A stretch of DNA of 62,269 nucleotides, from positions 1 through 62,269 of IMG/VR virus record IMGVR_UViG_3300032332_001372. One strand, given 5' to 3'. Source of the stretch: a virus (taxonomy: Duplodnaviria > Caudoviricetes). Of the stretch, positions 10,472 to 28,133 are shown piece after piece. Position numbers and translations under genes: made by a program. How positions within the stretch are numbered: the stretch's first letter is position 1; every line of letters begins with the position of its first letter. The notes under the pieces were generated by a model, which did no database searches, had not been told where the DNA came from, and worked only from the letters and a program-made list of their open reading frames with translations.

Positions 10472-11902
10472 ATGGCAGAGAAACTTGATTTAACGGAGTT
10501 TGGTTCGACGGGCTTGCGCCGTTCGGGTGGAACTGTCTATGAAGAATTTCTTACTAATCTTCGCGGTATCCGCGGCGCTAAGGTCTACCGCGAGATGGCA
10601 GATAACGACCCAGTAATTGGGTCAATGCTTTATGCAATTGAAAAAGTTATTACTCGCCTTGAATGGCGTATTGACCCATTTGAAGAAGATTTACAAGACG
10701 ATTCAGCATCCAATAAAGCCGATGAGGAAGTTGGAAAATTTATTGAAGAATGTCTGCACGATATGTCAGACTCATGGGACCAAACACTTTCAAGTATTTT
10801 AACTATGCTTATTTTTGGATATTCATATCACGAAATTGTTTATAAATATCGCGGTGGGCAAGATGCTAAAGATGGAACTCGCCGCTCAAAATATTCAGAT
10901 GGAAAAATTGGATGGCGCAAATTCCCTATTCGCGCTCAGGAAACTTTGTTCCGCTGGGATATTGATGAAACAGGCGGAATTAACGGAATGGTTCAAGTGG
11001 ACCCTTCAGGCGGCGGAGTTCATTACATCCCAATTGAAAAGGCTATGTTATTCCGCACTAGCGTTAATAAAAATAACCCAGAAGGTCGCTCAATCCTGCG
11101 CAACGCTTACCGACCATGGTATTTTAAAAAGCGCATTGAAGAAATTGAAGCAATTGGTATTGAGCGCGACCTTGCAGGTTTGCCTGTAGCGTTTGTTCCG
11201 CCAGAGTATTTATCAGCGTCGGCTTCAGATGCTCAGAAGGCTGTTTTGGCTTCGGTTCAGCAAATTGTTACTTCTATTAAGCGTAATGAGCAAGAGGGTG
11301 TTGTATTCCCAACTCTCTATGATGAGCATGGAAATAAGCAGTTTGATTTAAACCTTTTATCTTCAGGTGGTTCACGCCAGTTTGATACGGATAAAATTAT
11401 TCAGCGTTACGACCAAAGAATGTCTATGTCTATCCTTTCAGATTTTATTCTTCTCGGTTCAGACAAAGTTGGTTCTTACGCACTTGGTTCAACAAAGATG
11501 GATTTGTGGTCAATGGCTGTAGATTCAATCGCCAAAAACATTGCTGAAGTAATCAATTCTTATGCAATCCCTCGTTTGATGAAGTTAAACGGTATGGATG
11601 TAAGCCGTTGCCCACAACTTAATTACGGCGAGATTAACCATGTTGATTTAACTGAAATTGGCAACTTTGTTACACAGTTGGCTCAGGCTGGAGTTCTTGT
11701 TCCTGACGCAAACCTTGAACACTACTTACGCGATTTGGCTGGATTGCCCGAAGCGGACCATAGCGGTGCAAGTTTTGGTGCGCCTCCTGCACCTGGTCAA
11801 GAACCAGGAGTTCCCGCTGATGCAAATACTGCGGGACAAACAGTTGCCGACCAAGTAAAACCAGTTGAGGGAACGGAACCGCTCCAAGGCGATACGGACT
11901 AG
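10472..11902 (+). CDS. Portal protein (DUF935/Mu gp29-like)
   Basis: 476 aa, first gene of head module; NPEGRSILRNAY, GSYALG motifs. Confidence 0.85.
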   Translation: MAEKLDLTEFGSTGLRRSGGTVYEEFLTNLRGIRGAKVYREMADNDPVIGSMLYAIEKVITRLEWRIDPFEEDLQDDSASNKADEEVGKFIEECLHDMSDSWDQTLSSILTMLIFGYSYHEIVYKYRGGQDAKDGTRRSKYSDGKIGWRKFPIRAQETLFRWDIDETGGINGMVQVDPSGGGVHYIPIEKAMLFRTSVNKNNPEGRSILRNAYRPWYFKKRIEEIEAIGIERDLAGLPVAFVPPEYLSASASDAQKAVLASVQQIVTSIKRNEQEGVVFPTLYDEHGNKQFDLNLLSSGGSRQFDTDKIIQRYDQRMSMSILSDFILLGSDKVGSYALGSTKMDLWSMAVDSIAKNIAEVINSYAIPRLMKLNGMDVSRCPQLNYGEINHVDLTEIGNFVTQLAQAGVLVPDANLEHYLRDLAGLPEADHSGASFGAPPAPGQEPGVPADANTAGQTVADQVKPVEGTEPLQGDTD

Positions 11903-11905
11903 ACC

Positions 11906-12919
11906 ATGGCACTTCGGTTTAGTAAAGCCAACTCAGGAAAAAAAGTTCCACTAACTGCCGAAGAGCAGGTAATGGCTCGCACCCTAATAGATGCTATCCG
12001 TCGAACAACAAACTCAATTTCTGTTCAAGAATTATCGCGCATTATTTCTCAACTAGACGCAGATACTTTAGCCCGCTTGCTTCAACAAATTTCTATAAGT
12101 GGGGATGCCGCCGCAATCAATAGAGCCTTAATGCAATCAGTAAGTTTTGGTGGAACGGATGCAATTCAACAGATTGCTCGCATTGCTCCAATTCTTGCTT
12201 TACCCGCATTTATGCCAACTAAAGTCCAGGTTCTTAATCCTGAATCTTTAGCCAATATGGACTTTACAAAAGTTCCTCGTTGGGCAAGTAATGCACCAGA
12301 TAAGATTAAATTTAATTTAAGTTTTAATAAAACAAACCCAAACTCTTTGGCTTTTGCCCAACGCCGCGCTGGTGAATTAGTGAGAAGTATTGATGAGGCA
12401 ACTCGTTTATCTATCCGAAACATTATTACCGATTCTTTTGCTAATCAAGTAAGCCCACAAATTACCGCTATGCGCATTAAGAATATTATTGGACTTCACC
12501 CTAGATGGGCTGAGGCAGTAGTTGAATTTGAAAAGCGTGAAACTGCTCGTTTAATTAAGGCTGGAGTTTCAGAATCAAAGGCTGTTAAAACCGCTCAAGG
12601 TTCTGCCTCTGCATACGCTGATAGATTAAAACAAGCCCGTGCTACCACCATCGCTCGAACAGAAATTCAGATAGCACAAAATGAGGGACGCTACGAAGGT
12701 TGGAAGCAAGCATCTGATGCTGGGTATGTAGACCCCGCTTCAACTAAAACTTGGATAATTGCTCAAGACGAACGCACCTGCGATATATGTGTTCCCCTTG
12801 ATGGTGAAACAGTTCCATGGAACGGAATTTTTTCAATTGGAGATGAAGTTCCTGGAAGAGTGCATCCTAATTGCCGCTGCACCATGCAAATTAACCCTCC
12901 CGAAATTGCATCATTATGA
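11906..12919 (+). CDS. MuF / SPP1 gp7-like head morphogenesis protein
   Basis: RATTIARTE...KTW...DERTCDIC...HPNCRC; directly after portal. Confidence 0.9.
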   Translation: MALRFSKANSGKKVPLTAEEQVMARTLIDAIRRTTNSISVQELSRIISQLDADTLARLLQQISISGDAAAINRALMQSVSFGGTDAIQQIARIAPILALPAFMPTKVQVLNPESLANMDFTKVPRWASNAPDKIKFNLSFNKTNPNSLAFAQRRAGELVRSIDEATRLSIRNIITDSFANQVSPQITAMRIKNIIGLHPRWAEAVVEFEKRETARLIKAGVSESKAVKTAQGSASAYADRLKQARATTIARTEIQIAQNEGRYEGWKQASDAGYVDPASTKTWIIAQDERTCDICVPLDGETVPWNGIFSIGDEVPGRVHPNCRCTMQINPPEIASL

Positions 12920-13668
12920 CCCAGATAATTTACTTTCAACCTGGATTAAAACCAGTTCTTAAACACCAAGTCCACGACCAAAAGACTCATGGCAACTGGG
13001 CTTTAAGTGAGAACTATCCAGATTTATTAACACTAGGCACATTTGAAGAAGAATTTGAATATGACCCAGCGCTAATGGTTTATAGCGAGCGCTATGGAGT
13101 AGACAAAGACGGCAAAATCGTTGGAGTTGAAACCTTTGAGCATGATGCTATTGATAGTTATTCTCAAGAGGGGTATAAAAATATAAACGCGTTTCTTCGC
13201 AACCCCAGAGGTTTTGAAGGTTCTTATGAAATAAAATTTCTTCAAGAAAAGGTTGATGGGTTAGATTCTTTGATTGATAAGGCTCCAGATATGTTCGGAG
13301 ATAAAACTTTATTTCGAGTCGTAGATAATTTTGTTTTAGCGCAGTTAGCCCCAGGCGACACTCTCAGAGATAAAGGTTATTTATCAACTACACGAATAGA
13401 TTTGACCAAAGATACGGATACTCGGGATGCGCTTGGCGAAATATATGACACACCTGATACCGTTGCTGTCATTCTTCCAAGCCCAACCAAAAGCGGTAAA
13501 GGAATTGCCGTAGACCTTTATCGAACCTCCGTCAATGATACGAGTTCCGTATCAGATAGAGAAAAGGAAGTTCTATTACCTCGCCAAACGGATTTGCTGT
13601 TTTTGGGATATAAAAGAGGTATAGGCTCTGAGGATAAGGTCGCAGTCTTTCAAAGGGTGGATAAATGA
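12916..13668 (+). CDS. VIP2/Alt-like ADP-ribosyltransferase with N-terminal HDQ tag
   Basis: YKNINAFLR, TLFR, GYLSTT, EKEVLLPR motifs. Confidence 0.85.
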   Translation: MTQIIYFQPGLKPVLKHQVHDQKTHGNWALSENYPDLLTLGTFEEEFEYDPALMVYSERYGVDKDGKIVGVETFEHDAIDSYSQEGYKNINAFLRNPRGFEGSYEIKFLQEKVDGLDSLIDKAPDMFGDKTLFRVVDNFVLAQLAPGDTLRDKGYLSTTRIDLTKDTDTRDALGEIYDTPDTVAVILPSPTKSGKGIAVDLYRTSVNDTSSVSDREKEVLLPRQTDLLFLGYKRGIGSEDKVAVFQRVDK

Positions 13669-16295
13669 GCAGATTTAAAACCGTTCTTGAGGATGTTGAG
13701 ATTATCCAAGCCGTTGAAAAACACGGCACTCACGACCAAAAAACCCATGGTAACTGGGCTACGGGTGGAACTCTTTATACAAGCATTATTGACCGCTTGG
13801 CTGCTAAAGATGTAACTGGATTTAGCCTGGATATTTCTAGCCGCAAACAGCCTACGAGCGGCTATATGGCTTCAAATGATGGCGCTGAAAAACCTATCGC
13901 TTACGACGAATTCTTTTCAAGCAGGGATAATGGGCGAAAAATTCTTTTGGACTACATAGAAAAGAACGCAGACGCCCTAAGCGAGCGCGGAGCATATTTT
14001 GGTATATGGGTTGTAAAAGACCAGGGAACCGTGTATCTTGATGTTTCTCGGCGCTACGATTCCAGAGGTGAAGGAGTCCGCGCTGGATTTAGCAATAAAC
14101 AACAATCAATTTACGACATCGACAATGATGCGTATATCTATATGAAGGACGAGGTAGATGACCGAACCAACAAAGCCGTTACTGGTGGAAGTTCCAATTC
14201 CAGTCAATCAGATGACGGACGAAGAAAAGAAAGCCTTCGCGGAGGAAATTCTCAACGCGATAGAAAAGAACCGCTAACAACTTTCCCTCATGTTTGCTTA
14301 GGCAGATATACGGCAGTTCTAAAACACCTTCAGGGTTTGCATGACCAGGCAACTCATGGCGCCTGGGCTAGTGGTCGTTATCCAGAAGATTCAGTCAAAG
14401 CCGCCCGTGATGGCGCCAAAGAATATCTTTTTCAAAAAGGTTTAAAAGGCGATGACACAATTGATTACACAAAAATTGTAGCCAACCGCGAACGGGCATC
14501 TAAAATAGCAGACCTTTACGAAAATCTTCCTAAAATGGACAGAGATGCAGTAGATGAGTATGAGGCGCTTGCATCCGAAGTAGAAGAACAATTTGATTAC
14601 ATGACAAAGACTTTAGGGGTCAAGGTTGAGTTCGTTGCTTCAGACCCTTATAAGACTTCAAAAGAAATGTTTGAAGATGTAAGCAAAGGCTCTCTAAAGG
14701 TTTTATCAACAGCCTCTACTGGCGCTCACCCATTATTTAGCGATGAACAAAATGACAAGTTTAGAGCAGTCCATGATTACTTTGGACACGCTGCTACAGG
14801 TCGAGGATTTGGGCAAGACGGAGAAGAGTCAGCCTGGGTCCACCATTCCCAAATGTTTACAGAAAAAGCGCGGGGTGCTTTAACAACCGAAACCCGCGGA
14901 CAGAATTCCTTTTTTAATAATAGGGGAAAACAATTTGCAGACCAAAAAGTTGCTTTGTTACCACCTGAGTTCTGGCAAGTTCCGAAAGTGTTTGTCAAAA
15001 TGCAAATAATTCGTTTTGCTCCAGGATTAAAACCAATTTTAAAACACCTTCCTGGACAGCACGACCAGTCCACTCACGGAGCATGGGCAACTGGCGGCTA
15101 CAGCGAAGAGCGTCAAGCGGGCATTGCTGCCATGGAAAGCATGGGACCCTCAAGAGAGGACTTGGATAATCTTTATGATGCACTTCAGTCAAGTTCAAGT
15201 GGTCCATCTTTAGATGAGATGAAAGCAATTGTTGAAAATGACAGAGGGCTTTACGAGCAAGCAACTGATGGAATTGATGAAAGAGTTGCCGAGCGACTTA
15301 GCAATTTACAAGAAGAATTTCCTAAACATGAATACACAGAACAAGAAAAATCGACAATTTATGACGATGTTCAAACAGAAATGATTGATGAGTTCATTAA
15401 TTCTGAATCAGACACAATTCATCAGATGTTTGAAGAGTCAAACGGCGGAAGCGACATGGATAAAATAGCAGAAATGCAAGGCTTTATGAATGAGGTTTAC
15501 GCCTATGAACATACTGGAACAAATGCCGCAGGAGAAGAAAACACATATTATTCCGAAGTAACAAACATGGAACCTAGTCCATTTATTCCTGGCGGAATTA
15601 AAATTTACGGCTCTGTTTATACAACAAACGGAGATATTGCTGGAGAATTTGAGCGCACCATGTATAAAGAAAATGGTGAGTGGATGGTTGAGCATGACAT
15701 ATTCCAAATGTTTGATGACCACAAGGGTTCAGGATTTGGAAAAGGTTTTATTGAACAACAAGAAAACTGGTATGTATCCCGAGGATTTGATTCAATTGTT
15801 GTAGGAACCGCATGGGACGGCGCCCGCCATTGGGCAAGAGCGGGCTATGACTGGAATCCAAAAGAAATGACACAAAATGTTACCCAACTAATGCAAAGAG
15901 TTAATCACGAACCAGGGTTTGAGGTTGGCACCCAAAATAGAACTGAATTTGAATCTTTGATGGGTCGCATGGTTGAAAATTACAAACCAGGAACAAATGA
16001 AAACGCTATGGCTGGAACAGGTCTTACATCAGCAAGAGAGTTAAAAGTTAAACCCATGACAAATAATGATTTTCCAATCCCCGCTGATTTTGCAAACCTT
16101 GGAATTGACCGCAAAACTAAAACAGGTAATTTTGTGGACTGGGCTGGAAAAGGGCTGACCGCTGGACTGCACATGAAATACAAGAAGGGCTTGACCGCCG
16201 AAGGTTTGACTATTGCAGAGGGACCAATTGACCGCGATGGCGATGGATTGGTTTATGACGGAACAGCCCGAGAAAAACCAGCCCCAAACAAATAA
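13665..16295 (+). CDS. Three-module polyprotein: unknown (possibly SAM-lyase-like) domain, HDxxGH metal-binding domain, GNAT acetyltransferase-like domain
   Basis: Three HDQ tags split the ORF; FRAVHDYFGH...GEE; HKGSGFG...GARHWARAGY. Confidence 0.75.
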   Translation: MSRFKTVLEDVEIIQAVEKHGTHDQKTHGNWATGGTLYTSIIDRLAAKDVTGFSLDISSRKQPTSGYMASNDGAEKPIAYDEFFSSRDNGRKILLDYIEKNADALSERGAYFGIWVVKDQGTVYLDVSRRYDSRGEGVRAGFSNKQQSIYDIDNDAYIYMKDEVDDRTNKAVTGGSSNSSQSDDGRRKESLRGGNSQRDRKEPLTTFPHVCLGRYTAVLKHLQGLHDQATHGAWASGRYPEDSVKAARDGAKEYLFQKGLKGDDTIDYTKIVANRERASKIADLYENLPKMDRDAVDEYEALASEVEEQFDYMTKTLGVKVEFVASDPYKTSKEMFEDVSKGSLKVLSTASTGAHPLFSDEQNDKFRAVHDYFGHAATGRGFGQDGEESAWVHHSQMFTEKARGALTTETRGQNSFFNNRGKQFADQKVALLPPEFWQVPKVFVKMQIIRFAPGLKPILKHLPGQHDQSTHGAWATGGYSEERQAGIAAMESMGPSREDLDNLYDALQSSSSGPSLDEMKAIVENDRGLYEQATDGIDERVAERLSNLQEEFPKHEYTEQEKSTIYDDVQTEMIDEFINSESDTIHQMFEESNGGSDMDKIAEMQGFMNEVYAYEHTGTNAAGEENTYYSEVTNMEPSPFIPGGIKIYGSVYTTNGDIAGEFERTMYKENGEWMVEHDIFQMFDDHKGSGFGKGFIEQQENWYVSRGFDSIVVGTAWDGARHWARAGYDWNPKEMTQNVTQLMQRVNHEPGFEVGTQNRTEFESLMGRMVENYKPGTNENAMAGTGLTSARELKVKPMTNNDFPIPADFANLGIDRKTKTGNFVDWAGKGLTAGLHMKYKKGLTAEGLTIAEGPIDRDGDGLVYDGTAREKPAPNK
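14158..14277 (+). CDS. 39 aa ORF nested in the +1 frame of the polyprotein linker (candidate immunity peptide)
   Basis: GAGGT RBS-like site just upstream; MTEPTKPLLVEVPIPVNQMTDEEKKAFAEEILNAIEKNR. Confidence 0.55.
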   Translation: MTEPTKPLLVEVPIPVNQMTDEEKKAFAEEILNAIEKNR

Positions 16296-16327
16296 ACCCT
16301 GGTATAATTAGTTATTAAGGAGGCATC

Positions 16328-16489
16328 ATGGATAGAGCAGAACGGTTAAAAAGAATTCAAGCCGCATATGCTGAATTTTCAACGGACTTAAAGTTTGTTG
16401 ATGAAACAGGCGGCTCCGATAAAGATGAATCCGAATTTATGACGCATTTAGCGGAGATGAAATTAACCTCGGTAGAGGAAACTAAATAA
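16328..16489 (+). CDS. 53 aa acidic protein (candidate immunity protein of the GNAT module)
   Basis: Read manually; AAGGAGG RBS, TATAAT and operator motif upstream. Confidence 0.75.
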   Translation: MDRAERLKRIQAAYAEFSTDLKFVDETGGSDKDESEFMTHLAEMKLTSVEETK

Positions 16490-16520
16490 GGGTTGTAATC
16501 CCATCCGCTATCCTTAGCAA

Positions 16521-18809
16521 ATGGCTGACAATACTTTCACTCCTCCAGAGGGAGTTCGTTCCGCTGCAAAGCGGGCGCTAAAGTGGATTGCAGACGGCAA
16601 GGCTGGTAGCGGCTTTACCTCCGTAGGACACACCAGAGCCACACAATTAGCCAATGGCGAAAACATCTCGCTTGAAACTTTGAACAGAATGAAGTCTTTC
16701 TTTTCGCGCCATGAGGTTGATAAAAAGGCTACTGGATTTAATGAGGGAGAACAAGGTTTTCCTTCTCATGGAAGAGTTGCCTGGGATGCCTGGGGCGGTA
16801 ATGCTGGATTTGCCTGGGCTAAATCAAAAGTTGGGGAAACAGAAAAATCCATTAATAAAAGTGCAGATATTGCTCCTCGCTTGGTTGAACTCAGCGTCGA
16901 TAAATTGCGTTCGCTCCATGAGCGTTTACATAAATCCAGCCCAACCGCATCAACCCTAGAAGTCCATCATTTAACTACAACTGAAATGGCTCGCCGCGGT
17001 ATGGAGTTGCCAGTAAACGACGAATGGCAAAATGTCCGTATTCAGATTGATTATTTTAAAGATGTAGACCTCAAATCTTTTGCTTCAACTTTACCCACAG
17101 GACAAATTGAAGATGTAATTAAGGCAACTGGAACTAGCGTTGCTGATGTCAGAGTTGTTTTAACCTCTATTGGCTATGCCATGGAGATTGCCCCAAATGA
17201 TGTAGTTGCAAAAATGATTAAACATCAAAAAGATAAATGGGTTGTTTATGATTCAACAGGAACTCATGCTTTTGGAACATACGATACAAAAGAAGAAGCA
17301 ATGGACCGCATTGCTGAAATGGAATATTTTAAAAAACACCTTCAAGGTCAGCATGACCAAAAAACCCACGCTCCTATTTGGACAAGAAATCTTGTAGATG
17401 CAATAGAAGCGGGAGAACACCCAGAAGTAGAGCCAGAAAATATTTCTGCAATGCTCAAAGGAATGAGTAAATTAACAACCCATCCAGACATTACGGAAGT
17501 AAGCGTAAAAGGACATTTGCTTTTTGGCGGCGAAGGAATGGGTATTGCCCGCAAAGATATGCCCCAGATTCCAAGCAGGGAAAGAGATAGATTTCTTTCA
17601 GAAATTGAAAAAACAGATGGCGTTACTTTTGATAAAGAAAAGGTGGACCCTACAACTTTGAAACCAATTCAAAAAGAAATTTCTGGTTCTCGGGCTGGCG
17701 CTATTTATAATAAATTTGCGGAAGATGGAGGAATTCCAAAAAATGAACGAATTCTTATTTCCTCCGACGGCTTTGTTGTAGACGGTCACCATACATGGGC
17801 AGCATCAGTTGGATTTGCATTTGACAAACCAGGAACAGAAATCCCAGTTTATCGTTTGTCAATTACTGGTAAGGAAGCCTTAAAGATTTCAAATGATTGG
17901 GCAAAAGCAAACGGATTTGAAGGTCAAGCGATTGACGCCAAGGTTAAAAAATCTTTATATCTTTTAGAACCTATGGAAAAGTTTAATCCTCACCATGATG
18001 AAATTGGAAGATTTACAACTGCAACTGGTGGCGGTTCTAGTGGTGCAACCGTAACAGGAAATACGCAAGATGGTTCTCAAGTTGTAAACGGAATTAAAGT
18101 TCCACCCCTTGCTAAAGAACCTGAAATTAAAGCACACAATCCAGTTGCGCTTGCCAAAGCAAAAGAAATTAATGAAACTGCAAAAAGAGTTGAACCAGCA
18201 ATTACTGGATTAATTACTGCAATTGCTCAACGAAGTGGCGGAGAATTTGTTCAGTTAGACCAGAGGATTAAATCAACTGAAGCGTTGGCTGGAAAAATTG
18301 AACGCGAGGCTGTATCCGAACACGGTGGGGACCTTGATAAAGCAGCAGCGGGTATTTCTGATGCCGTCCGTTACACACTTAAAGTTCCGCAATCTGAATA
18401 TACGGCTTCTTTTGATTCAACAATTAAAGTTTTACAAGATGCAGGTTTTACAACAATCCGACCAAAAAACTTTTGGCAATCAGGCGACCCTTATGATGGC
18501 GCTAATATCAAAGGAATCAAAAACGGAATTCAAATTGAAGTCCAATTACACACCCCTGAATCTTTTGCCATGAAAAAGCGTATACACGGGTATTACGAGG
18601 CTTACAGAAAATCCCCAAACGATACGACCCGCAAGAGGATGTGGACTCGCATGGTCAATATTGCTAAAACATTAGAAAAACCAGCCAACTATTCAACTTT
18701 GCTGGGCATCGGAACCCTTGTTTTACAACAATTCCAAACAGCCCAAGAAGTGGGTTTGGTAAAATCAACTAGGGTTGATATACTAAACCTTAATAAGAGA
18801 GAGGGGTAA
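16521..18809 (+). CDS. Polyprotein: head-associated small domains, ParB/Srx-like domain, RelA/SpoT-like (small alarmone synthetase-type) nucleotidyltransferase
   Basis: LKPIQKEI...DGFVVDGHHTW; RIKSTEAL..KI, DAVRYT, KNFW..GDPYDG, IEVQLHT. Confidence 0.8.
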   Translation: MADNTFTPPEGVRSAAKRALKWIADGKAGSGFTSVGHTRATQLANGENISLETLNRMKSFFSRHEVDKKATGFNEGEQGFPSHGRVAWDAWGGNAGFAWAKSKVGETEKSINKSADIAPRLVELSVDKLRSLHERLHKSSPTASTLEVHHLTTTEMARRGMELPVNDEWQNVRIQIDYFKDVDLKSFASTLPTGQIEDVIKATGTSVADVRVVLTSIGYAMEIAPNDVVAKMIKHQKDKWVVYDSTGTHAFGTYDTKEEAMDRIAEMEYFKKHLQGQHDQKTHAPIWTRNLVDAIEAGEHPEVEPENISAMLKGMSKLTTHPDITEVSVKGHLLFGGEGMGIARKDMPQIPSRERDRFLSEIEKTDGVTFDKEKVDPTTLKPIQKEISGSRAGAIYNKFAEDGGIPKNERILISSDGFVVDGHHTWAASVGFAFDKPGTEIPVYRLSITGKEALKISNDWAKANGFEGQAIDAKVKKSLYLLEPMEKFNPHHDEIGRFTTATGGGSSGATVTGNTQDGSQVVNGIKVPPLAKEPEIKAHNPVALAKAKEINETAKRVEPAITGLITAIAQRSGGEFVQLDQRIKSTEALAGKIEREAVSEHGGDLDKAAAGISDAVRYTLKVPQSEYTASFDSTIKVLQDAGFTTIRPKNFWQSGDPYDGANIKGIKNGIQIEVQLHTPESFAMKKRIHGYYEAYRKSPNDTTRKRMWTRMVNIAKTLEKPANYSTLLGIGTLVLQQFQTAQEVGLVKSTRVDILNLNKREG

Positions 18810-18811
18810 AA

Positions 18812-19546
18812 ATGAGATATTTCATACTTATGAGTATGGGCAAACCCATTAATTTACGCCGCTGGACACCTGAAACTGAAGAGCGATGGCAGGACGGAAA
18901 ATGGGTTCCAAGCGATGTAATCGGAGCATACTTAGCATTAGGCGAAGGCGATTACGATGAAATTACTACGGAATTAGCAATTGCTACATTTCCTGATGCT
19001 TTTGGCGATTTAACAAAGTCAATCGGAGCCTACGAAGTTTCCAAGGCTGAGGATATGAAGCGCTACACATTAGGCGCCATGTATATCCCAGACCGTTTAG
19101 ATGCTCATAGTGAGTGGACATCTGCTGATGAATTACAGCAAGCCGTGTGGACATATGTTCGCTCAGGTGACCGAAATATCCGCCTTCAACATAATCGAGA
19201 AATCGTTGCAGGTGAATGGGTCGAAGTTATGGCTTTCCCTTATGAATTAACAGTTCCAGTTCAACAAGCCGATGGGTCAAAACAATCACATACATATCCA
19301 GCAAATACAGTTTTTCTTGGAGTTGTTTGGGAACCGTGGGCATGGGAACTTGTCCAAAGCGGAAAAATTCTTGGTTACTCAATTGGAGGTAAGGCTGAAC
19401 GCCTTTATGTCGATATGGAAGAAGTTATCAAGGAGGACCCAACTTCTGATGGTCCCTTAGCCTCAGATGTTCATGTTGATACAATAATCAGTCAGCAGAA
19501 AAAAAAGAAACTTCCAAAGATTTTAGTTGAGGATAACAATGTCTAA
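18812..19546 (+). CDS. XkdF-like prohead serine protease with an extra ~65 aa N-terminal domain
   Basis: YIPDRLDAHSEW, LQH, W.LVQSGKILGYSIGG. Confidence 0.8.
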   Translation: MRYFILMSMGKPINLRRWTPETEERWQDGKWVPSDVIGAYLALGEGDYDEITTELAIATFPDAFGDLTKSIGAYEVSKAEDMKRYTLGAMYIPDRLDAHSEWTSADELQQAVWTYVRSGDRNIRLQHNREIVAGEWVEVMAFPYELTVPVQQADGSKQSHTYPANTVFLGVVWEPWAWELVQSGKILGYSIGGKAERLYVDMEEVIKEDPTSDGPLASDVHVDTIISQQKKKKLPKILVEDNNV

Positions 19547-20105
19547 AAAAGAAGGTATTTCAGTTGGCGATATGGTCGGCTGGAATTCTTCAGGCGGTCA
19601 TGCCATGGGCAGGGTCGAACACATTATGCGGGACGGTGTTTTAGGAATCCCTGATTCAAAGTTTAAAATAAATGCTTCGAAAGAGGACCCTGCTGTATTA
19701 ATCAGAATTTATCGTAATGGTGAAGAAACTGAAACTTTAGTCGGTCACAAAATGTCCACATTGTCTGGAACTGTCAAAAAATATAATCGCCACCATGATG
19801 ATATTGGTCGTTTCTCTTCTGGTGTGGAAGGAACTGGCATTGGCATAAACGGCGATGACAATATGGATGCCATGGATATGATGGACATTAATCGCCCGCC
19901 TCGCTCAAAGCGTCAATTGACTGCATCTGAAAGAAAACTTCTTAATAGAATTACATCTGGCGCAACAAATTATGTTTTGCGTCCTGGTGATAACCGCGGT
20001 GTTTATAATCTTCCTTTTTCAACTGGACCAAAATTAAACGGTGGTATTACTGGATATGTTCCAAATTCAGGAGTAACTGGACAGCCAGGAGCGGGTGGTA
20101 TGTGA
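19539..20105 (+). CDS. Tudor/SH3-like (HVA1/DUF2945-like) domain, HHDxIGRF tag, low-complexity tail
   Basis: ISVGDMVGWNSSGG...VGHKMSTL; RBS GAGGA before ATG 19539. Confidence 0.65.
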   Translation: MSKKEGISVGDMVGWNSSGGHAMGRVEHIMRDGVLGIPDSKFKINASKEDPAVLIRIYRNGEETETLVGHKMSTLSGTVKKYNRHHDDIGRFSSGVEGTGIGINGDDNMDAMDMMDINRPPRSKRQLTASERKLLNRITSGATNYVLRPGDNRGVYNLPFSTGPKLNGGITGYVPNSGVTGQPGAGGM

Positions 20106-20468: not shown

Positions 20469-21242
20469 ATGGCTGGTCGCGCTCGCAAAATGGTGAATCT
20501 TGCCATTGAAGAAACAAGTGGGGTAGACCATCCCGCACACCTACACGAAGGTTGGCTGGTTATGAAATCTGCCGACGAATCTGAAGTTCAGAGTGTCTTA
20601 GACGAAACGCTCACCGAGGAGGACTCCAACATGGAGGATGTAACTACCGCGGCTGTTGAAGAGCAGGTCGAAAAGGCTGACATGACTATCGAAGAAGCAA
20701 TGAAGAAAATTGCAGAACTTGAAGCCAAGTTAGCAGAATCCAAATCTGAAGATGCGGCTGAACCAGCAATGGCTAAGTCGGTTTCAGAGGAATTCTTGAA
20801 GTCCGCTCCTGAGCCAGTCGTCAAAATGATTGAAGATTTGAAGAAAGCAGCAAGCGATGCAATCGCAGAACTCCAGAAGGAGCGCGATGCAACAGCAGAT
20901 GCAGAAGCAGTTGAAAAGGCAAAGGGATGGGCAAACCTTTCTCTTGATGCCGAAAAAGTTGGTCCAGCGCTTCGTCGTTTGGCAACAATTGATGCAGAAC
21001 TAGCAAAGTCAGTAGAAGAAGTTCTAACTGCAACTAACGCAAAGGCTGAATCAGCAGATATTTTTGCGGAAATCGGCAAATCCGCAGATTTCAAGAGCGG
21101 TGATGCTTACAGTCGTATGACTGCCATGGCAAAGTCTGCTGTTGAAGAGGGTGTTGCAAAGTCATTCGAGAACGCTCTCGCTGACATTGCTGTAAGCAAC
21201 CCTGACCTTTACAGCCAATACCTATCCGAGAAAGGTGCCTAA
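20469..21242 (+). CDS. Capsid scaffolding protein
   Basis: ETSGVDHPA N-terminus, acidic coiled-coil, many xK-S/A sites; upstream of capsid genes. Confidence 0.75.
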   Translation: MAGRARKMVNLAIEETSGVDHPAHLHEGWLVMKSADESEVQSVLDETLTEEDSNMEDVTTAAVEEQVEKADMTIEEAMKKIAELEAKLAESKSEDAAEPAMAKSVSEEFLKSAPEPVVKMIEDLKKAASDAIAELQKERDATADAEAVEKAKGWANLSLDAEKVGPALRRLATIDAELAKSVEEVLTATNAKAESADIFAEIGKSADFKSGDAYSRMTAMAKSAVEEGVAKSFENALADIAVSNPDLYSQYLSEKGA

Positions 21243-21654: not shown

Positions 21655-22632
21655 ATGCCACAACCAAATATCAATAGCGTCCACATTGACGCAATTCTTA
21701 CAAACATTTCTGTTGCTTACCTTCAGAATCAAGACAACTTCATCGCTGACAAGGTATTCCCAGTAATCCCTGTCGATAAGCGTTCAAATAAGTATTTCAC
21801 TTATGACAAGAACGACTGGTTCCGTGACGAGGCTCAACGCCGCGCTCCTGGAACAGAGTCCGCTGGTGGAGGATATTCTCTTTCAACTGCAACATACTCA
21901 GCAGATGTTTTTGCTTTCCACAAAGATGTCGATGACCAAACAATGGCTAACGCAGATACACCTTTGAACCCTCTTCGTGAGGCAACAGAGTTCGTAACTC
22001 GCCGCCTAATGCTTCGTCGTGAACTTCAATTCGTATCTGATTTCTTCACAACAAGCGTATGGGGAACAGACATCACAGGTGTTTCAGGAACTCCATCAAC
22101 AAACCAAGTAAAGCAATGGTCAGACTACACAGCATCAGACCCAATCAATGACATCGAAAACGGTAAGTCAGGCATCCTTTCTGTAACAGGTATGGAAGCA
22201 AACACACTCGTTCTCGGATACGAAGTATTCAAGGCTCTAAAGAACCATCCAGACCTTGTGGACCGTATCAAATACACATCTTCACAGACAATCACAACAG
22301 ATATGCTTGCGGCAATGTTTGACATTCCACGCGTTATCGTTGCCAAGGCTGTAAAGGCAACAAACAACGAAGGCGCAACAGGTGCATATGGTTTTGCATT
22401 TGGTAAGTCAGCACTTCTTTGCCATGTTGCTGCAAACCCAGGTCTGCTAACACCTTCAGCGGGTTACACATTCGCATGGACAGGCGTTTCAGGCGGACTT
22501 GGCGCAACCATTGGAACTTCACAGTTCCGTATGGAATCAATCAAGTCAGACCGCATTGAAGCGGAAATGGCATTTGATAACAAGGTAGTAGCGAGTGACC
22601 TCGGTTACTTCTGGACCTCAATCGTCGCTTAA
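21655..22632 (+). CDS. Major capsid protein
   Basis: 325 aa; LTNISVAY..FIADKVFP; followed by terminator. Confidence 0.9.
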   Translation: MPQPNINSVHIDAILTNISVAYLQNQDNFIADKVFPVIPVDKRSNKYFTYDKNDWFRDEAQRRAPGTESAGGGYSLSTATYSADVFAFHKDVDDQTMANADTPLNPLREATEFVTRRLMLRRELQFVSDFFTTSVWGTDITGVSGTPSTNQVKQWSDYTASDPINDIENGKSGILSVTGMEANTLVLGYEVFKALKNHPDLVDRIKYTSSQTITTDMLAAMFDIPRVIVAKAVKATNNEGATGAYGFAFGKSALLCHVAANPGLLTPSAGYTFAWTGVSGGLGATIGTSQFRMESIKSDRIEAEMAFDNKVVASDLGYFWTSIVA

Positions 22633-25834: not shown

Positions 25835-26152
25835 ATGGCTGCAACACCTACAGTTCTTAACCGCTCGGCGGCATCTTTAACTACAACCACGGTCCTTTAT
25901 ACGGTCCCATCTTCAACAATTGCCATTGTTTCTAACATTGCTGTTGTAAACACATCAGGCTCAGCGGGAACATTCACTCTTGCCATGGGTCCAGCGGCAG
26001 GTCAGATTGCAATTGCAACAACTGTTGCTATTGCTGCAAACTCGACTGTCTATATTGATTTAAAGCAAGTTCTTGTAGCCACAAATACGATTACAGGTGG
26101 CGCATCTGCTACTTCAATCAACTTCCACATTAGCGGAGTGGAGATTGTTTAA
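25835..26152 (+). CDS. Putative structural protein (paralog of 25065)
   Basis: VLYTVPSST..VSNIAVVN...SGVEI. Confidence 0.75.
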   Translation: MAATPTVLNRSAASLTTTTVLYTVPSSTIAIVSNIAVVNTSGSAGTFTLAMGPAAGQIAIATTVAIAANSTVYIDLKQVLVATNTITGGASATSINFHISGVEIV

Positions 26153-26859
26153 TGGCTTCCAATACTTTTCCACAACCAGCAGTTGGTCGTAATGCTGTTG
26201 CAACTTTAAATTCCACTTATCTTTCTTCAACAAACTTTACTGTCCCTACTGGAGTTACCGAAATTTATTACCTTGCAGTTGGCGGTGGAGGCGGCGGAGC
26301 AGGAGGAAATGCTGGCGACCCTGGTAACAATTACGGTGCAAATGGCGGCGGCGGTGGTAGTGGAGTAGTTACTCAAGGAGTAATTAATGGACTTCAACCT
26401 GGAGTTACCTATCCAATTGTTATTGGTGCTGGCGGTGGCTCAAACGGTAACGGTGGTTCTACTCGTTTTGGTAATCAAATTCTTTCATTGGGTGGGAATA
26501 CTGGAAATAATGGAAACTGTTGTCAGCAAGCAGGTGGTCCTGGTGGCGGTCAATCTCTGGGTGGCGGAAGTCCTAGTGGCGGCGGCTCTTTAGGAGTTCC
26601 AGGTGCAGGAAACCCACTTCCTACCTTTAATGTGCCTCCTGGCGGTGGCGGCGGCGGCGGCGGCTCTGGCGGCTCAGCGGGAACAGGTCCTTCTACTGCT
26701 GGAAACGGCGGTAACAACGGCGGACCAGGCAACCCAACGGCGGGAAATGCAGGCACTCGCGGCGGCGGCGGCGGAGGCGGCGGGTCGGGCGGACTTAATG
26801 GCAGCGGCGGCGGTGGCGGTGGCACGGGCGGCAGCGGCGTTCTTTATCTTTATTACTAA
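26152..26859 (+). CDS. Glycine-rich fibre/receptor-binding-type protein
   Basis: FTVPTGVT...AVGGGGGG...GGSGVLYLYY. Confidence 0.75.
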   Translation: MASNTFPQPAVGRNAVATLNSTYLSSTNFTVPTGVTEIYYLAVGGGGGGAGGNAGDPGNNYGANGGGGGSGVVTQGVINGLQPGVTYPIVIGAGGGSNGNGGSTRFGNQILSLGGNTGNNGNCCQQAGGPGGGQSLGGGSPSGGGSLGVPGAGNPLPTFNVPPGGGGGGGGSGGSAGTGPSTAGNGGNNGGPGNPTAGNAGTRGGGGGGGGSGGLNGSGGGGGGTGGSGVLYLYY

Positions 26860-26872
26860 CAAGGAGATTTAA

Positions 26873-27715
26873 ATGGGAATTCAACAGGTGCCTGCTGCTT
26901 CAACTAGCAGCGTCCCTACTTTAAGAACCGCCTATACATCTTCAGGTTCTACTGCTGTAGGAAATATTGTTGCTTGGTTTATGGCAGTAGGCGGCGGCGG
27001 TGGTGGCGGCGGCGGCGGAGCGGGAAATACAAACGGTGGTTCTGGCGGCGGAGGCGGCGGCGGAGGAGCAACCTCTTTTGGTCTTTACTGGGTAGTAACT
27101 TCACCTATAACTTTAACAATTGGTGCTGGTGGGACTGCTGGGACTGCTGGCGGTGCGGGCGGTGCTGGTGGCGCAACCACAATTACATTCCCTAACTTAA
27201 CCCTTACAGTCAATGGTGGCTCTGCTGGAGCGCTTGGCGGAGTAAACGCCAACGGCGGAGCAGGTGGTGCTGGTGCATCAACAGGCGGAGGTGGCGGAGG
27301 TGGAGGCGGAGGCGGCGCGGGTGCTTTTGGCATTGGCGGCGGCGCGGGTGGCGGCGGCGGTCTTGGTCTTATTGGTAGCATTGGTGCTGGCGGTCAATCA
27401 GGTAACTCTGGCGGAGCAGCAGGCGCGGCAGGCGGAGCAAACTGGTTTGGCTCTACAGGCGGCGGTGGCGGCGGAGGTGGTGGTGCGGGTTCAGGCTCGG
27501 GAACTGCTGGAGCAGCGGCAAACGGCGGCGCAGGAACATGGAATAGTGCTGGAAACGGCGGCGCAGGCGGCGCTCCAAACGGAGCGGGCGTAACAGGCTC
27601 AGCGGCAACTGGATATGGAAATGGAGGCGGCGGTGGAGGCGGAGGCGGCTCAACATCAGGTGCAGCATCAACAGGTGGAGCAGGTTCAACGGGTGCAGTC
27701 CTTATCTACTGGTAA
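26873..27715 (+). CDS. Glycine-rich fibre/receptor-binding-type protein
   Basis: AVGGGGGG...GAVLIYW. Confidence 0.75.
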   Translation: MGIQQVPAASTSSVPTLRTAYTSSGSTAVGNIVAWFMAVGGGGGGGGGGAGNTNGGSGGGGGGGGATSFGLYWVVTSPITLTIGAGGTAGTAGGAGGAGGATTITFPNLTLTVNGGSAGALGGVNANGGAGGAGASTGGGGGGGGGGGAGAFGIGGGAGGGGGLGLIGSIGAGGQSGNSGGAAGAAGGANWFGSTGGGGGGGGGAGSGSGTAGAAANGGAGTWNSAGNGGAGGAPNGAGVTGSAATGYGNGGGGGGGGGSTSGAASTGGAGSTGAVLIYW

Positions 27716-27911
27716 AAAACCTAATCCAGAAGATTTAGATTACAAACTTTACGCAGTAGTTAAAGATAATATTGTCTTAGGTTCTACCTGGGAAATACCA
27801 GAAGTAAAAGAAGATGGACTTGAATTTGTCTTAATGACATTTGATAATTCACCTGCTTTTACTGGCGGGACCTATAAAAACGGAAAATTTTACCAAGAAA
27901 AGGAGCAATAA
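27693..27911 (+). CDS. Small accessory/chaperone-like protein (probable GTG start 27693)
   Basis: YAVVKDNIV...GGTYKNGKF; resembles next ORF. Confidence 0.55.
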   Translation: MQSLSTGKKPNPEDLDYKLYAVVKDNIVLGSTWEIPEVKEDGLEFVLMTFDNSPAFTGGTYKNGKFYQEKEQ

Positions 27912-28133
27912 ATGGCAACATTTGCAATTATAAAAGATGGAATCGTAGATAACATTATTGCGGCTGATTCATTAGAAGATGCTCAATCTGTTACTGGCGA
28001 AGGTTTTGAGGCTATTGAATACACAGCCGAAAATGGAGCGCACATAGGTTTATCTTACGATAAAACAACAGGACTATTTGAACAAAATATACCTGCTGAT
28101 GAACCACTTGTAGACCCAGTTTACCCAAAATAA
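27912..28133 (+). CDS. Small accessory/chaperone-like protein
   Basis: MATFAIIKDGIVDNII...IGLSYD..F. Confidence 0.7.
   Translation: MATFAIIKDGIVDNIIAADSLEDAQSVTGEGFEAIEYTAENGAHIGLSYDKTTGLFEQNIPADEPLVDPVYPK

Follow-up and report, generated by a model that had tools for sequence, protein, structure and literature searches.

A short histidine-rich peptide repeated before unrelated effector domains in a phage head module: a candidate cargo signal for capsid-borne enzymes

The DNA analysed here, called the window throughout and meaning the whole stretch, is a virus record (IMG/VR IMGVR_UViG_3300032332_001372, Caudoviricetes) that is complete, carries direct terminal repeats and measures 62,269 bp; its head module spans 10.4-22.6 kb. 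A first-pass annotation had described in it a histidine-rich peptide, hereafter the tag, which recurs seven times in four open reading frames (ORFs) between the genes for a MuF-like head morphogenesis protein and a scaffold-like protein. This is confirmed by a six-frame regular-expression scan of the whole window and by tag profiles that were built from independent copies and then run over the window; the two scans agree on all seven copies, and all seven lie inside the MuF-to-scaffold interval. Five belong to class A (KH..HDQ..HG.WA) and two to class B (K[FY]N.HHD.IGRF). The six frames hold no further tag, the runner-up profile scores being 1.6 bits for class A and 3.6 bits for class B, and NCBIfam has no model matching the tags. 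The copies are as follows, with the score of the respective profile.

12961..13002, plus strand: class A tag 1 (KHQVHDQKTHGNWA), with the upstream extension FQPGLKPVL; ORF3; 38.3 bits
13719..13760, plus strand: class A tag 2 (KHGTHDQKTHGNWA); ORF4, in the low-confidence segment 1-35; 46.4 bits
14322..14369, plus strand: class A tag 3 (KHLQGLHDQATHGAWA); ORF4, in the low-confidence segment 167-236; 45.3 bits
15042..15089, plus strand: class A tag 4 (KHLPGQHDQSTHGAWA), with the upstream extension FAPGLKPIL; ORF4, in the low-confidence segment 439-476; 55.0 bits
17334..17381, plus strand: class A tag 5 (KHLQGQHDQKTHAPIW), 3' half atypical; ORF6, in a low-confidence segment; 37.5 bits
17979..18017, plus strand: class B tag 1 (KFNPHHDEIGRFT); ORF6, in the low-confidence segment 199-241 of the model; 46.4 bits
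19779..19817, plus strand: class B tag 2 (KYNRHHDDIGRFS); ORF8; 38.8 bits

The four ORFs that carry them are the following.

12916..13668, plus strand: ORF3, 250 aa, a 15-aa leader, a class A tag (aa 16-29) and an ADP-ribosyltransferase (ART; aa 75-226; Pfam ADPrib_exo_Tox, E 2e-10)
13665..16295, plus strand: ORF4, 876 aa, three tagged cassettes (AlphaFold2 model; phrog_3170, E 4.5e-56; GNAT rows in Foldseek)
16521..18809, plus strand: ORF6, 762 aa, two tags and four domains (phrog_2859, E 7.3e-230; AlphaFold2 model; structural matches)
19527..20105, plus strand: ORF8, 192 aa, an Hva1_TUDOR domain (aa 14-66; Pfam E 2.6e-7), a class B tag and a Gly/Asp-rich tail

The cassettes of ORF4 are a domain of unknown fold (aa 36-166), an HDxxGH domain (aa 237-438, the part matched by phrog_3170) and a helical region followed by a GNAT domain (aa 477-876). 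ORF6 starts with two untagged sub-domains (aa 1-270), after which come a class A tag, a ParB/sulfiredoxin (Srx)-like domain (aa ~283-469), a class B tag and a small alarmone synthetase-like domain (aa ~513-746). In the AlphaFold2 models of ORF4 and of ORF6 residues 272-762, folded domains alternate with low-confidence segments (predicted local distance difference test, pLDDT, <50), and 5/5 modelled tags fall in such segments between folded domains. A second motif, PHVCLGR (ORF4 aa 209-215, window 14289-14309), lies just upstream of tag 3 in the predicted disordered linker; its residues H209, C211, G213 and R214 are invariant in 30 ORF4 homologues.

The domain assignments proposed in the first-pass annotation held up to different degrees. 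That of ORF3 as an ADP-ribosyltransferase is borne out by the Pfam match given above; a homologous-protein search with ORF3 residues 1-40 as query returned only nine close ART relatives. The RelA/SpoT-like call for the end of ORF6 is likewise upheld, by a Foldseek match to 8vx3 (E 4.9e-12, TM (target) 0.81) and a profile match to the same PDB entry (E 9e-20); the domain aligns with 8vx3 at Z 19.0 (root-mean-square deviation 2.8 over 192 residues) and with Tas1 (6ox6) at Z 13.3, and fold and sequence together identify it as a predicted small alarmone synthetase close to an exported Streptomyces enzyme and to Tas1. It matches the C-termini of Streptococcus and Mannheimia MuF proteins, where RelA/SpoT domains are described by Zhang et al. 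2012 (PMC3482391). The stretch aa 529-697 (window 18105-18611) also matches the C-terminal part of the NCBIfam model for XopAD/skwp type III effectors (E 1.5e-26, a score far under the family cutoff of 2000 bits), which is consistent with the RelA/SpoT domains that the same paper reports in effectors of this type. The evidence for the GNAT domain of ORF4 is uniform but weak: the top Foldseek rows are all GNAT acetyltransferases (E 3.6e-3 to 3e-2), profile matches to PDB acetyltransferases are weak, and homologues carry JGI GNAT names. Similarly, the ParB-like call has modest structural matches in its favour (Z 5.2-6.2, a range common for this tool), all five rows being what we take to be ParB/Srx folds (sulfiredoxin 6ky4, Z 6.2; PadC 6ryk, 5.9; pNOB8 ParB-N 5k5d, 5.8; SerK 5x0b, 5.7; SbnI 5ujd, 5.2), but separate window segments for the GNAT, ParB and RelA domains gave no Pfam match at E<=1. 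An Atlas search with the HDxxGH cassette gave no usable match, and gp205 of Rhodococcus phage E3, a homologue of this domain, is annotated as 'structural protein' and has no tag. The description of the sequence after the last tag as a low-complexity remnant finds no support, ORF8 being 83% identical over its whole length in the relative G005.

Two further observations concern the N-terminal part of ORF6. Its two sub-domains (window 16521-17330), between which there is no tag, are swapped in most relatives: residues 3-165 of those proteins align with window aa 114-270, and residues 167-283 with window aa 4-113. G005 shares the order of the window. A homologue of ORF6 aa 5-146 also forms the start of gene 38 of Roseobacter phage CRP-701 (L149:4518-7142, 875 aa, annotated as major capsid protein, without a tag), followed, by eye, by a protease-like segment and an HK97-type capsid protein.

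Outside the window the tag is widespread. A scan of IMG/VR with a degenerate DNA pattern back-translated from KHLxGxHDQxxHG gave at least 118 stretches with at least 465 class A cores in 307 open frames; among the matches listed, to which the counts of loci, frames and cassettes given below also refer, there are up to five cores in one frame and up to 11 pattern matches in one stretch. From 385 unique copies the consensus [VLI]-x-K-H-(L-x)-G-x-H-D-Q-[SK]-[TS]-H-G-[SN]-W-A-x-G-G was derived; conservation does not extend into the flanks, and the W (77%) and A (74%) are conserved though absent from the search pattern. When a 34-position class A profile was searched against 1.84 billion representative proteins, 1,392 clusters were reached at E<=1e-3, 385 at <=1e-10 and 32 at <=1e-30, the most tag-rich protein (7,059 aa) showing up to 20 matched stretches. 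Four complete relatives of ~60 kb (G001-G004) carry 19, 19, 8 and 15 class A tags. Class B, with the consensus x-K-[FY]-N-P-[HN]-H-D-E-x-G-R-F-[AST]-x-x-x-G-G, was found with a strict pattern in 26 IMG/VR stretches, up to six tags per locus, and with a K[FY]NP-anchored pattern in 61 stretches of bacterial genomes, mostly of Alphaproteobacteria (including two cultured Novosphingobium strains) and also of Clostridia and others. One homologue is named from a Micrococcales metagenome-assembled genome. The sole match of a 37-aa tag segment in INPHARED (tblastn) was unrelated (E 7), this search being too insensitive for a 16-residue motif and thus silent on absence.

The claim that the tag is portable and stands at the start of unrelated blocks received strong support. 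Among frames without a cut at the locus end, the last tag is followed by at least 80 residues, a domain-sized block, in 245/253 and by fewer than 40 in only 1/253, in 167/287 no more than 60 residues separate the first tag from the stop codon before it, and the median distance from tag to tag is 215 residues. In the best 150 proteins of the profile search, which hold 558 tags, the first tag lies within 40 residues of the start in 101 and the last is followed by fewer than 40 residues in one; the rare short tails belong to Tudor proteins and are acidic or Gly-rich. A block almost always follows the tag, and a block before it is dispensable. The 449 cassettes fall into at least 74 BLAST clusters and include 45 singletons, and Pfam assigned 146 cassette representatives to no family more than eight times (ART 8, Zeta_toxin 4, SprT 4, MuF 3; further names were AAA_33, DUF3626, DUF7249, DUF7178, GNAT, XkdF protease and the Tudor domain). 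Class B tags precede ART, Zeta toxin, LPD3, 2H, topoisomerase IB, Tox-REase-5 and Tpt1 domains in viral contigs, and CdiA-CT RNase A, WHH, colicin DNase, Colicin_E5, DddA-like and MafB19 deaminase domains, as well as CHAP and glucosaminidase domains, in bacterial genomes.

Protein P0012 (2,201 aa) consists of nine successive units of tag plus ART; in P0013 (1,880 aa), eight tags go with six ART stretches. The tags within one protein are near-identical to one another, variable positions included. This tandem layout suggests that of a precursor processed at repeated sites.

Comparison of the window with G005 showed where the cassettes are exchanged. The portal, MuF and scaffold proteins of the two are 95%, 87% and 93% identical, whereas their tagged ART ORFs, next to MuF, share only 35%; within ORF6, identity is 92% and 76% upstream of the first tag and 45% downstream of it. 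Because identity falls at the tag, the unit of exchange is the tag together with its domain. This coincidence of mosaic breakpoints with tags would also be expected if the tag were a passive cassette boundary, that is, a recombination scar or junction kept by shuffling whose peptide has no function, and VENN-like pre-toxin motifs do mark swap points. However, where tags of the same locus have the same residue, identical codons are used in 52.2% of 8,334 comparisons, against 45.3% expected from codon usage, and since codon identity is near expectation, it is the peptide rather than the DNA that is conserved. The tag residues are nevertheless invariant in 30 ORF4 homologues of ~55% identity, in which the surrounding linkers vary. 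Moreover, some 48 nt with diverged codons are a poor substrate for homologous recombination, and the two classes, different as DNA, occupy the same junctions. We consider a passive boundary very improbable.

The two classes have a common form, Φ-x-K-[H/F/Y] ... H-D-[Q/E] ... G-x-[W/F]-[A/S/T], in which the position two before the lysine holds a hydrophobic residue in 80% of the 326 class A copies and in 79% of the 39 class B copies, as against 8-39% at neighbouring positions. G001-G004 carry class A only and the window is a mixed genome, while G005 has no class A tag and instead five strict class B tags plus one variant, on its orthologues of the ART ORF, ORF4 and ORF6. At the ParB/synthetase junction, where the window has class B, six ORF6 orthologues show a class A-type tag (one of them degenerate, with GDQ for HDQ). 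The same holds for the Tudor protein: in locus L008 the sequence leading up to a class A tag corresponds to the last part of the Tudor domain of the window, while both the window and G005 have class B there. The counterpart in L041 shares this class A tag and the acidic tail; only for L008 are the Tudor residues before the tag visible. In sum, classes A and B are one motif in two dialects, interchangeable at orthologous junctions.

The surroundings of the tagged ORFs in the window are listed next.

10472..11902, plus strand: Mu-type portal protein (Pfam Portal_Mu, E 5.6e-40; phrog_113, E 4.8e-94)
11906..12919, plus strand: MuF-like head morphogenesis protein (Pfam Phage_Mu_F, PF04233, E 4.2e-12; phrog_3517, E 1.6e-56), its stop overlapping the start of ORF3, the first tagged ORF
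16328..16489: 53-aa ORF between ORF4 and ORF6, without match in family searches and the sole small untagged ORF within the cassette block
18812..19546, plus strand: XkdF-type prohead serine protease (Pfam Peptidase_S78_2, PF14550, E 3e-11)
between ORF8 and the scaffold-like gene: 88-aa ORF
20469..21242, plus strand: scaffold-like protein (phrog_13547; 93% identical in G005), the downstream limit of the tagged block
21655..22632, plus strand: major capsid protein, called from its location after the scaffold and a decoration-like ORF and from a weak Phage_cap_E match (Pfam E 2.7e-4, under the curated cutoff)

The serine of the protease motif GYSIGG is conserved, being invariant across 31 aligned homologues. 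In most close homologues the protease core is followed by a conserved tail, DGP..DVHVDTIM.PKKKK (window 19430-19543), which may be a capsid-docking or self-cleavage segment of the protease itself. Elsewhere in the window, G+C rises to 0.531 at 26001-28000, compared with ~0.42 in the rest, with a GC skew of +0.205.

The tie of the tags to head modules is confirmed by the listed class A loci, 89/118 of which contain at least one gene homologous to a head gene of the window (portal, MuF, protease, scaffold, decoration or capsid); MuF is found in 73/118, the portal in 51/118 and the protease in 34/118, and these are lower bounds, many loci being short. A strict restriction to the head interval holds for 59/61 class A tags of the four complete relatives, which lie in one block of 9-16 kb in each (about a quarter of the genome in G001), and fails for the other two. 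In G002, two small ORFs of 172 and 205 aa with a coiled-coil-like leader and a class A tag (G002:C1:40546-41153, L158) are found ~17 kb from the main block. The 118 frames neighbouring class B tags include terminase, portal, MuF and capsid genes, three XkdF-type proteases and one S78 protease.

The first-pass annotation had further stated that the enzymes are not fused to MuF. This is correct for the window, where the MuF gene stops at 12919 and the ART has an ORF of its own, but not for its relatives. There, a MuF domain precedes a class A tag in 14 frames and a class B tag in one, follows five class A tags in one frame and a single one in another, and the prohead protease occurs after a tag, before three tags, or before a Tudor domain and a tag (five frames in all). 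A portal protein is joined to a class B tag in 10/31 viral ORFs and 27/74 ORFs of bacterial genomes, the tag being followed by CdiA-CT RNase, WHH, colicin DNase, DddA-like or MafB19 deaminase or Zeta toxin domains. In L020 (6744-8645) a ParB-like cassette runs directly into the core of the prohead protease, with only a decayed tag between the two and no alarmone-synthetase cassette.

These fusions also bear on the idea that the tag acts in the host, either docking effectors to a conserved host factor after injection or limiting their lifetime as a degron, without any role in assembly. A short disordered motif common to enzymes of unrelated activity would suit such a function, and the tag is found in phages of apparently different hosts (one homologue named from Micrococcales; Alphaproteobacteria, Clostridia and others for class B). 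That very breadth speaks against one host target, however, and the tag also stands before MuF, before the prohead protease and before the acidic tail that follows the Tudor domain, none of which is an obvious host-acting enzyme. A host-directed motif is therefore quite improbable in our opinion.

We believe that the tag is best explained as a signal by which the assembly machinery recognises effectors as cargo for the head, with the XkdF-type prohead protease as its probable cutter, and we give this explanation a probability of about 0.5; packaging, cleavage, the identity of the reader and ejection we infer from context in each case. According to this proposal, the tag, a linear motif some 20 residues long that lies in disordered leaders or linkers and is usually followed by Gly/Ser, would mark the N-terminal edge of a self-contained, capsid-bound effector cassette, and the XkdF-type protease would be the candidate reader and cutter. 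Polyproteins and effectors fused to portal, MuF or protease would be cut at their tags into single-domain enzymes inside the prohead. In stand-alone cassettes the tag peptide would serve for capture in the prohead, with subsequent loss of the short leader. The freed enzymes (ART, GNAT, ParB-like, alarmone synthetase and others) would then leave with the DNA and act early on the host. A release site is suggested because no address is needed between portal, MuF or protease and a toxin, and because the tag is repeated in tandem precursors; a portal-tethered effector, in particular, can exit the capsid only if cut, and thus the portal-tag fusions favour cleavage. Capture is suggested because the tag is kept on stand-alone ORFs. 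A single reader for both functions would most economically be the prohead protease, which is itself built into proheads. The prohead protease clan uses sites with a hydrophobic P3 and a specific P1, a layout seen in T4 gp21 sites (L/I-x-E) and herpesvirus assemblin sites, and Φ-x-K is similar. When the core of the XkdF protease and the class A tag were modelled as a complex, the outcome (score 0.00, mark 0.32) spoke neither for nor against binding.

Other chemistries of cutting were considered and rejected. Ni-dependent (S/T)-x-H hydrolysis, 2A-like NPG cleavage and isopeptide chemistry require residues that are not common to both tag classes, and autoprocessing by SprT/MPTase domains as a general mechanism was discarded since SprT-like domains occur in only 4/146 cassettes.

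Several observations weigh against a tag that is captured and cut by the prohead protease. The tag was absent from all six cultured-phage loci reached via homologues of MuF, ORF4 and ORF6 (E3, Laroye, ValentiniPuff, Yong-M2-251, CRP-701 and Atpa001; 0/6), and no virion proteome of any tagged phage was found. The two tags outside the head block, both in G002, follow closely on a terminase-like gene. Only the 34 of 118 class A loci mentioned and 3/118 class B neighbouring frames showed an XkdF-type protease, short flanks making both figures lower bounds. Stand-alone ORFs have no need of cutting. With ~16-20 conserved positions, the motif is far longer than known prohead-protease sites, a length more in keeping with an epitope for binding or with an autonomous element than with a mere site of scission. 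By profile scan there is nothing tag-like in the capsid, scaffold, portal, MuF or protease proteins of the window, so the usual substrates of the protease need other sites or stay uncut. Finally, near-identical head genes work with either class, which calls for a tolerant reader or for none.

Some of these points would be met if the tag were a targeting or ejection signal only, docking cargo to the scaffold, the capsid interior, the portal, the Tudor protein or the exit channel, with uncut polyproteins travelling whole. Selection on the tag in stand-alone ORFs and its epitope-like length agree with this, the capsid-targeting sequences of T4 and P1 are precedents, and the polyvalent protein gp47 of phi24B was found whole in virions by proteomics (preprint). 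On the other hand, a single polypeptide needs no tag per domain, an address is superfluous on cargo that is already in the prohead by fusion to portal, MuF or protease, uncut toxins tethered to the portal could not exit, and the string of nine tag-ART units resembles a processed precursor. On balance, targeting without cutting seems unlikely to us. The remaining explanation is an autonomous linker element, a His/Asp-rich motif that binds metal, cleaves itself or self-associates (for instance to condense cargo) and has no dedicated reader. It would account for the function of both classes alongside near-identical head genes and for the lack of tag-like sites in the other head proteins, and, judging from the consensus, the conserved His, Asp and Gln/Glu together with Gly or Asn-Pro turns could form a metal-binding knuckle. 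Against it, AlphaFold2 models the tags without structure (pLDDT <50), two histidines of class A are missing from class B, leaving no evident common ligand set, and the strict head-module context is left unexplained; we regard it as rather unlikely.

It is possible, though we advance it only tentatively, that tailed phages with portal, scaffold and prohead protease generally use the tag as an 'address label plus cut site' for their capsid cargo, among them lytic phages that give up to a quarter of a 60-kb genome to tagged effectors and prophages of Alphaproteobacteria and others that carry polymorphic toxins on the portal. If so, the injected proteins of thousands of uncultured phages could be read off a simple motif search. 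Capsid-travelling proteins are known for a handful of model phages; elsewhere the position of a gene, or its fusion to MuF or portal, is all that the guess is based on, so a conserved, searchable cargo peptide would give testable predictions across metagenomes. Many unannotated effector families would surface, as most of the 146 cassette representatives share no Pfam family, and some phages would be seen to spend 12-26% of their genome on injected weaponry. Were the tag sufficient for loading, it would offer a portable handle of ~20 residues with which foreign proteins could be packed into phage heads.

Among known systems, N-terminal leaders comparable to the tag are the capsid targeting sequence of the T4 internal proteins, trimmed by gp21, the propeptides of phiKZ and SPN3US and the signal of P1 DarB; the proteins behind these leaders enter the prohead, are trimmed there by its protease and go out with the DNA. 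The T4 leader has ~10 aa, ends in the gp21 site L/I-x-E and suffices to bring a foreign protein into proheads, where it is removed, whereas the tag has no L/I-x-E or A/S/G-x-E site and the protease of the window is of the XkdF type, not gp21. In comparison with the leaders of T4, phiKZ and P1, the tag is much longer, far more conserved and repeated within polyproteins, and its phages have a separate scaffold and proteases of the XkdF or HK97 (S78) type. Short conserved motifs just upstream of swappable toxin domains are also known in VENN of CdiA and DPxGL of Rhs. The tag shares with them its place directly before variable polymorphic-toxin domains, Zeta_toxin and ART included, but lacks the DNA-level conservation for homologous exchange (52.2% against 45.3%, as above), can be present in many copies in one protein, also stands at the start of stand-alone ORFs, and has the phage head as its vehicle. 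Encapsulin cargo-loading peptides, too, are short and disordered and send unrelated enzymes into the lumen of an HK97-fold shell; unlike the tag, they are mostly C-terminal, are not repeated between domains and have no link to a protease.

Both the domain repertoire and the idea of head-packaged effectors are already known from polyvalent proteins and MuF toxins (PMC5512222, PMC3482391, PMC9503650 and PMC5576092). A tag of this kind (two dialects, one per domain, on stand-alone ORFs and fusions, and of such breadth) was not found in the literature searched, though supplementary alignments might show it; an exact-string search with six tag variants had no match, no such motif is described in the passages covered of the same four papers, and wider searches yielded only the precedents from T4, SPN3US and P1. 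In polyvalent proteins (Iyer et al. 2017, PMC5512222), effector domains of unrelated kinds (ART, GNAT, ParB-like, RelA/SpoT) share a single chain whose gene lies with those for the virion; these proteins are inferred to be packaged and injected, include MuF and portal fusions, and have been proposed to be processed by zincin-like MPTase domains. ORF4, with three folded modules including GNAT, and ORF6 likewise join at least two disparate domains, and the tagged ORFs of the window lie in a portal-terminase phage between MuF and the prohead protease; the difference is the inter-domain tag, which the passages covered of that paper do not mention as a common feature and which the F116-like protein of Atpa001 lacks. 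The polymorphic MuF toxins (Zhang et al. 2012, PMC3482391; Jamet et al. 2017, PMC5576092) carry variable toxin domains on a head protein and are thought to be capsid-borne. A cognate immunity gene would be expected beside a toxin of this kind; in the window the only small ORF between the cassettes is the 53-aa one at 16328-16489. Instead of an N-terminal MuF fused to a C-terminal toxin, the window has separate ORFs and polyproteins, and tags of the window type additionally join toxins to the portal and the protease. The literatures on polyvalent proteins and on MuF toxins would be brought together by one junction motif.

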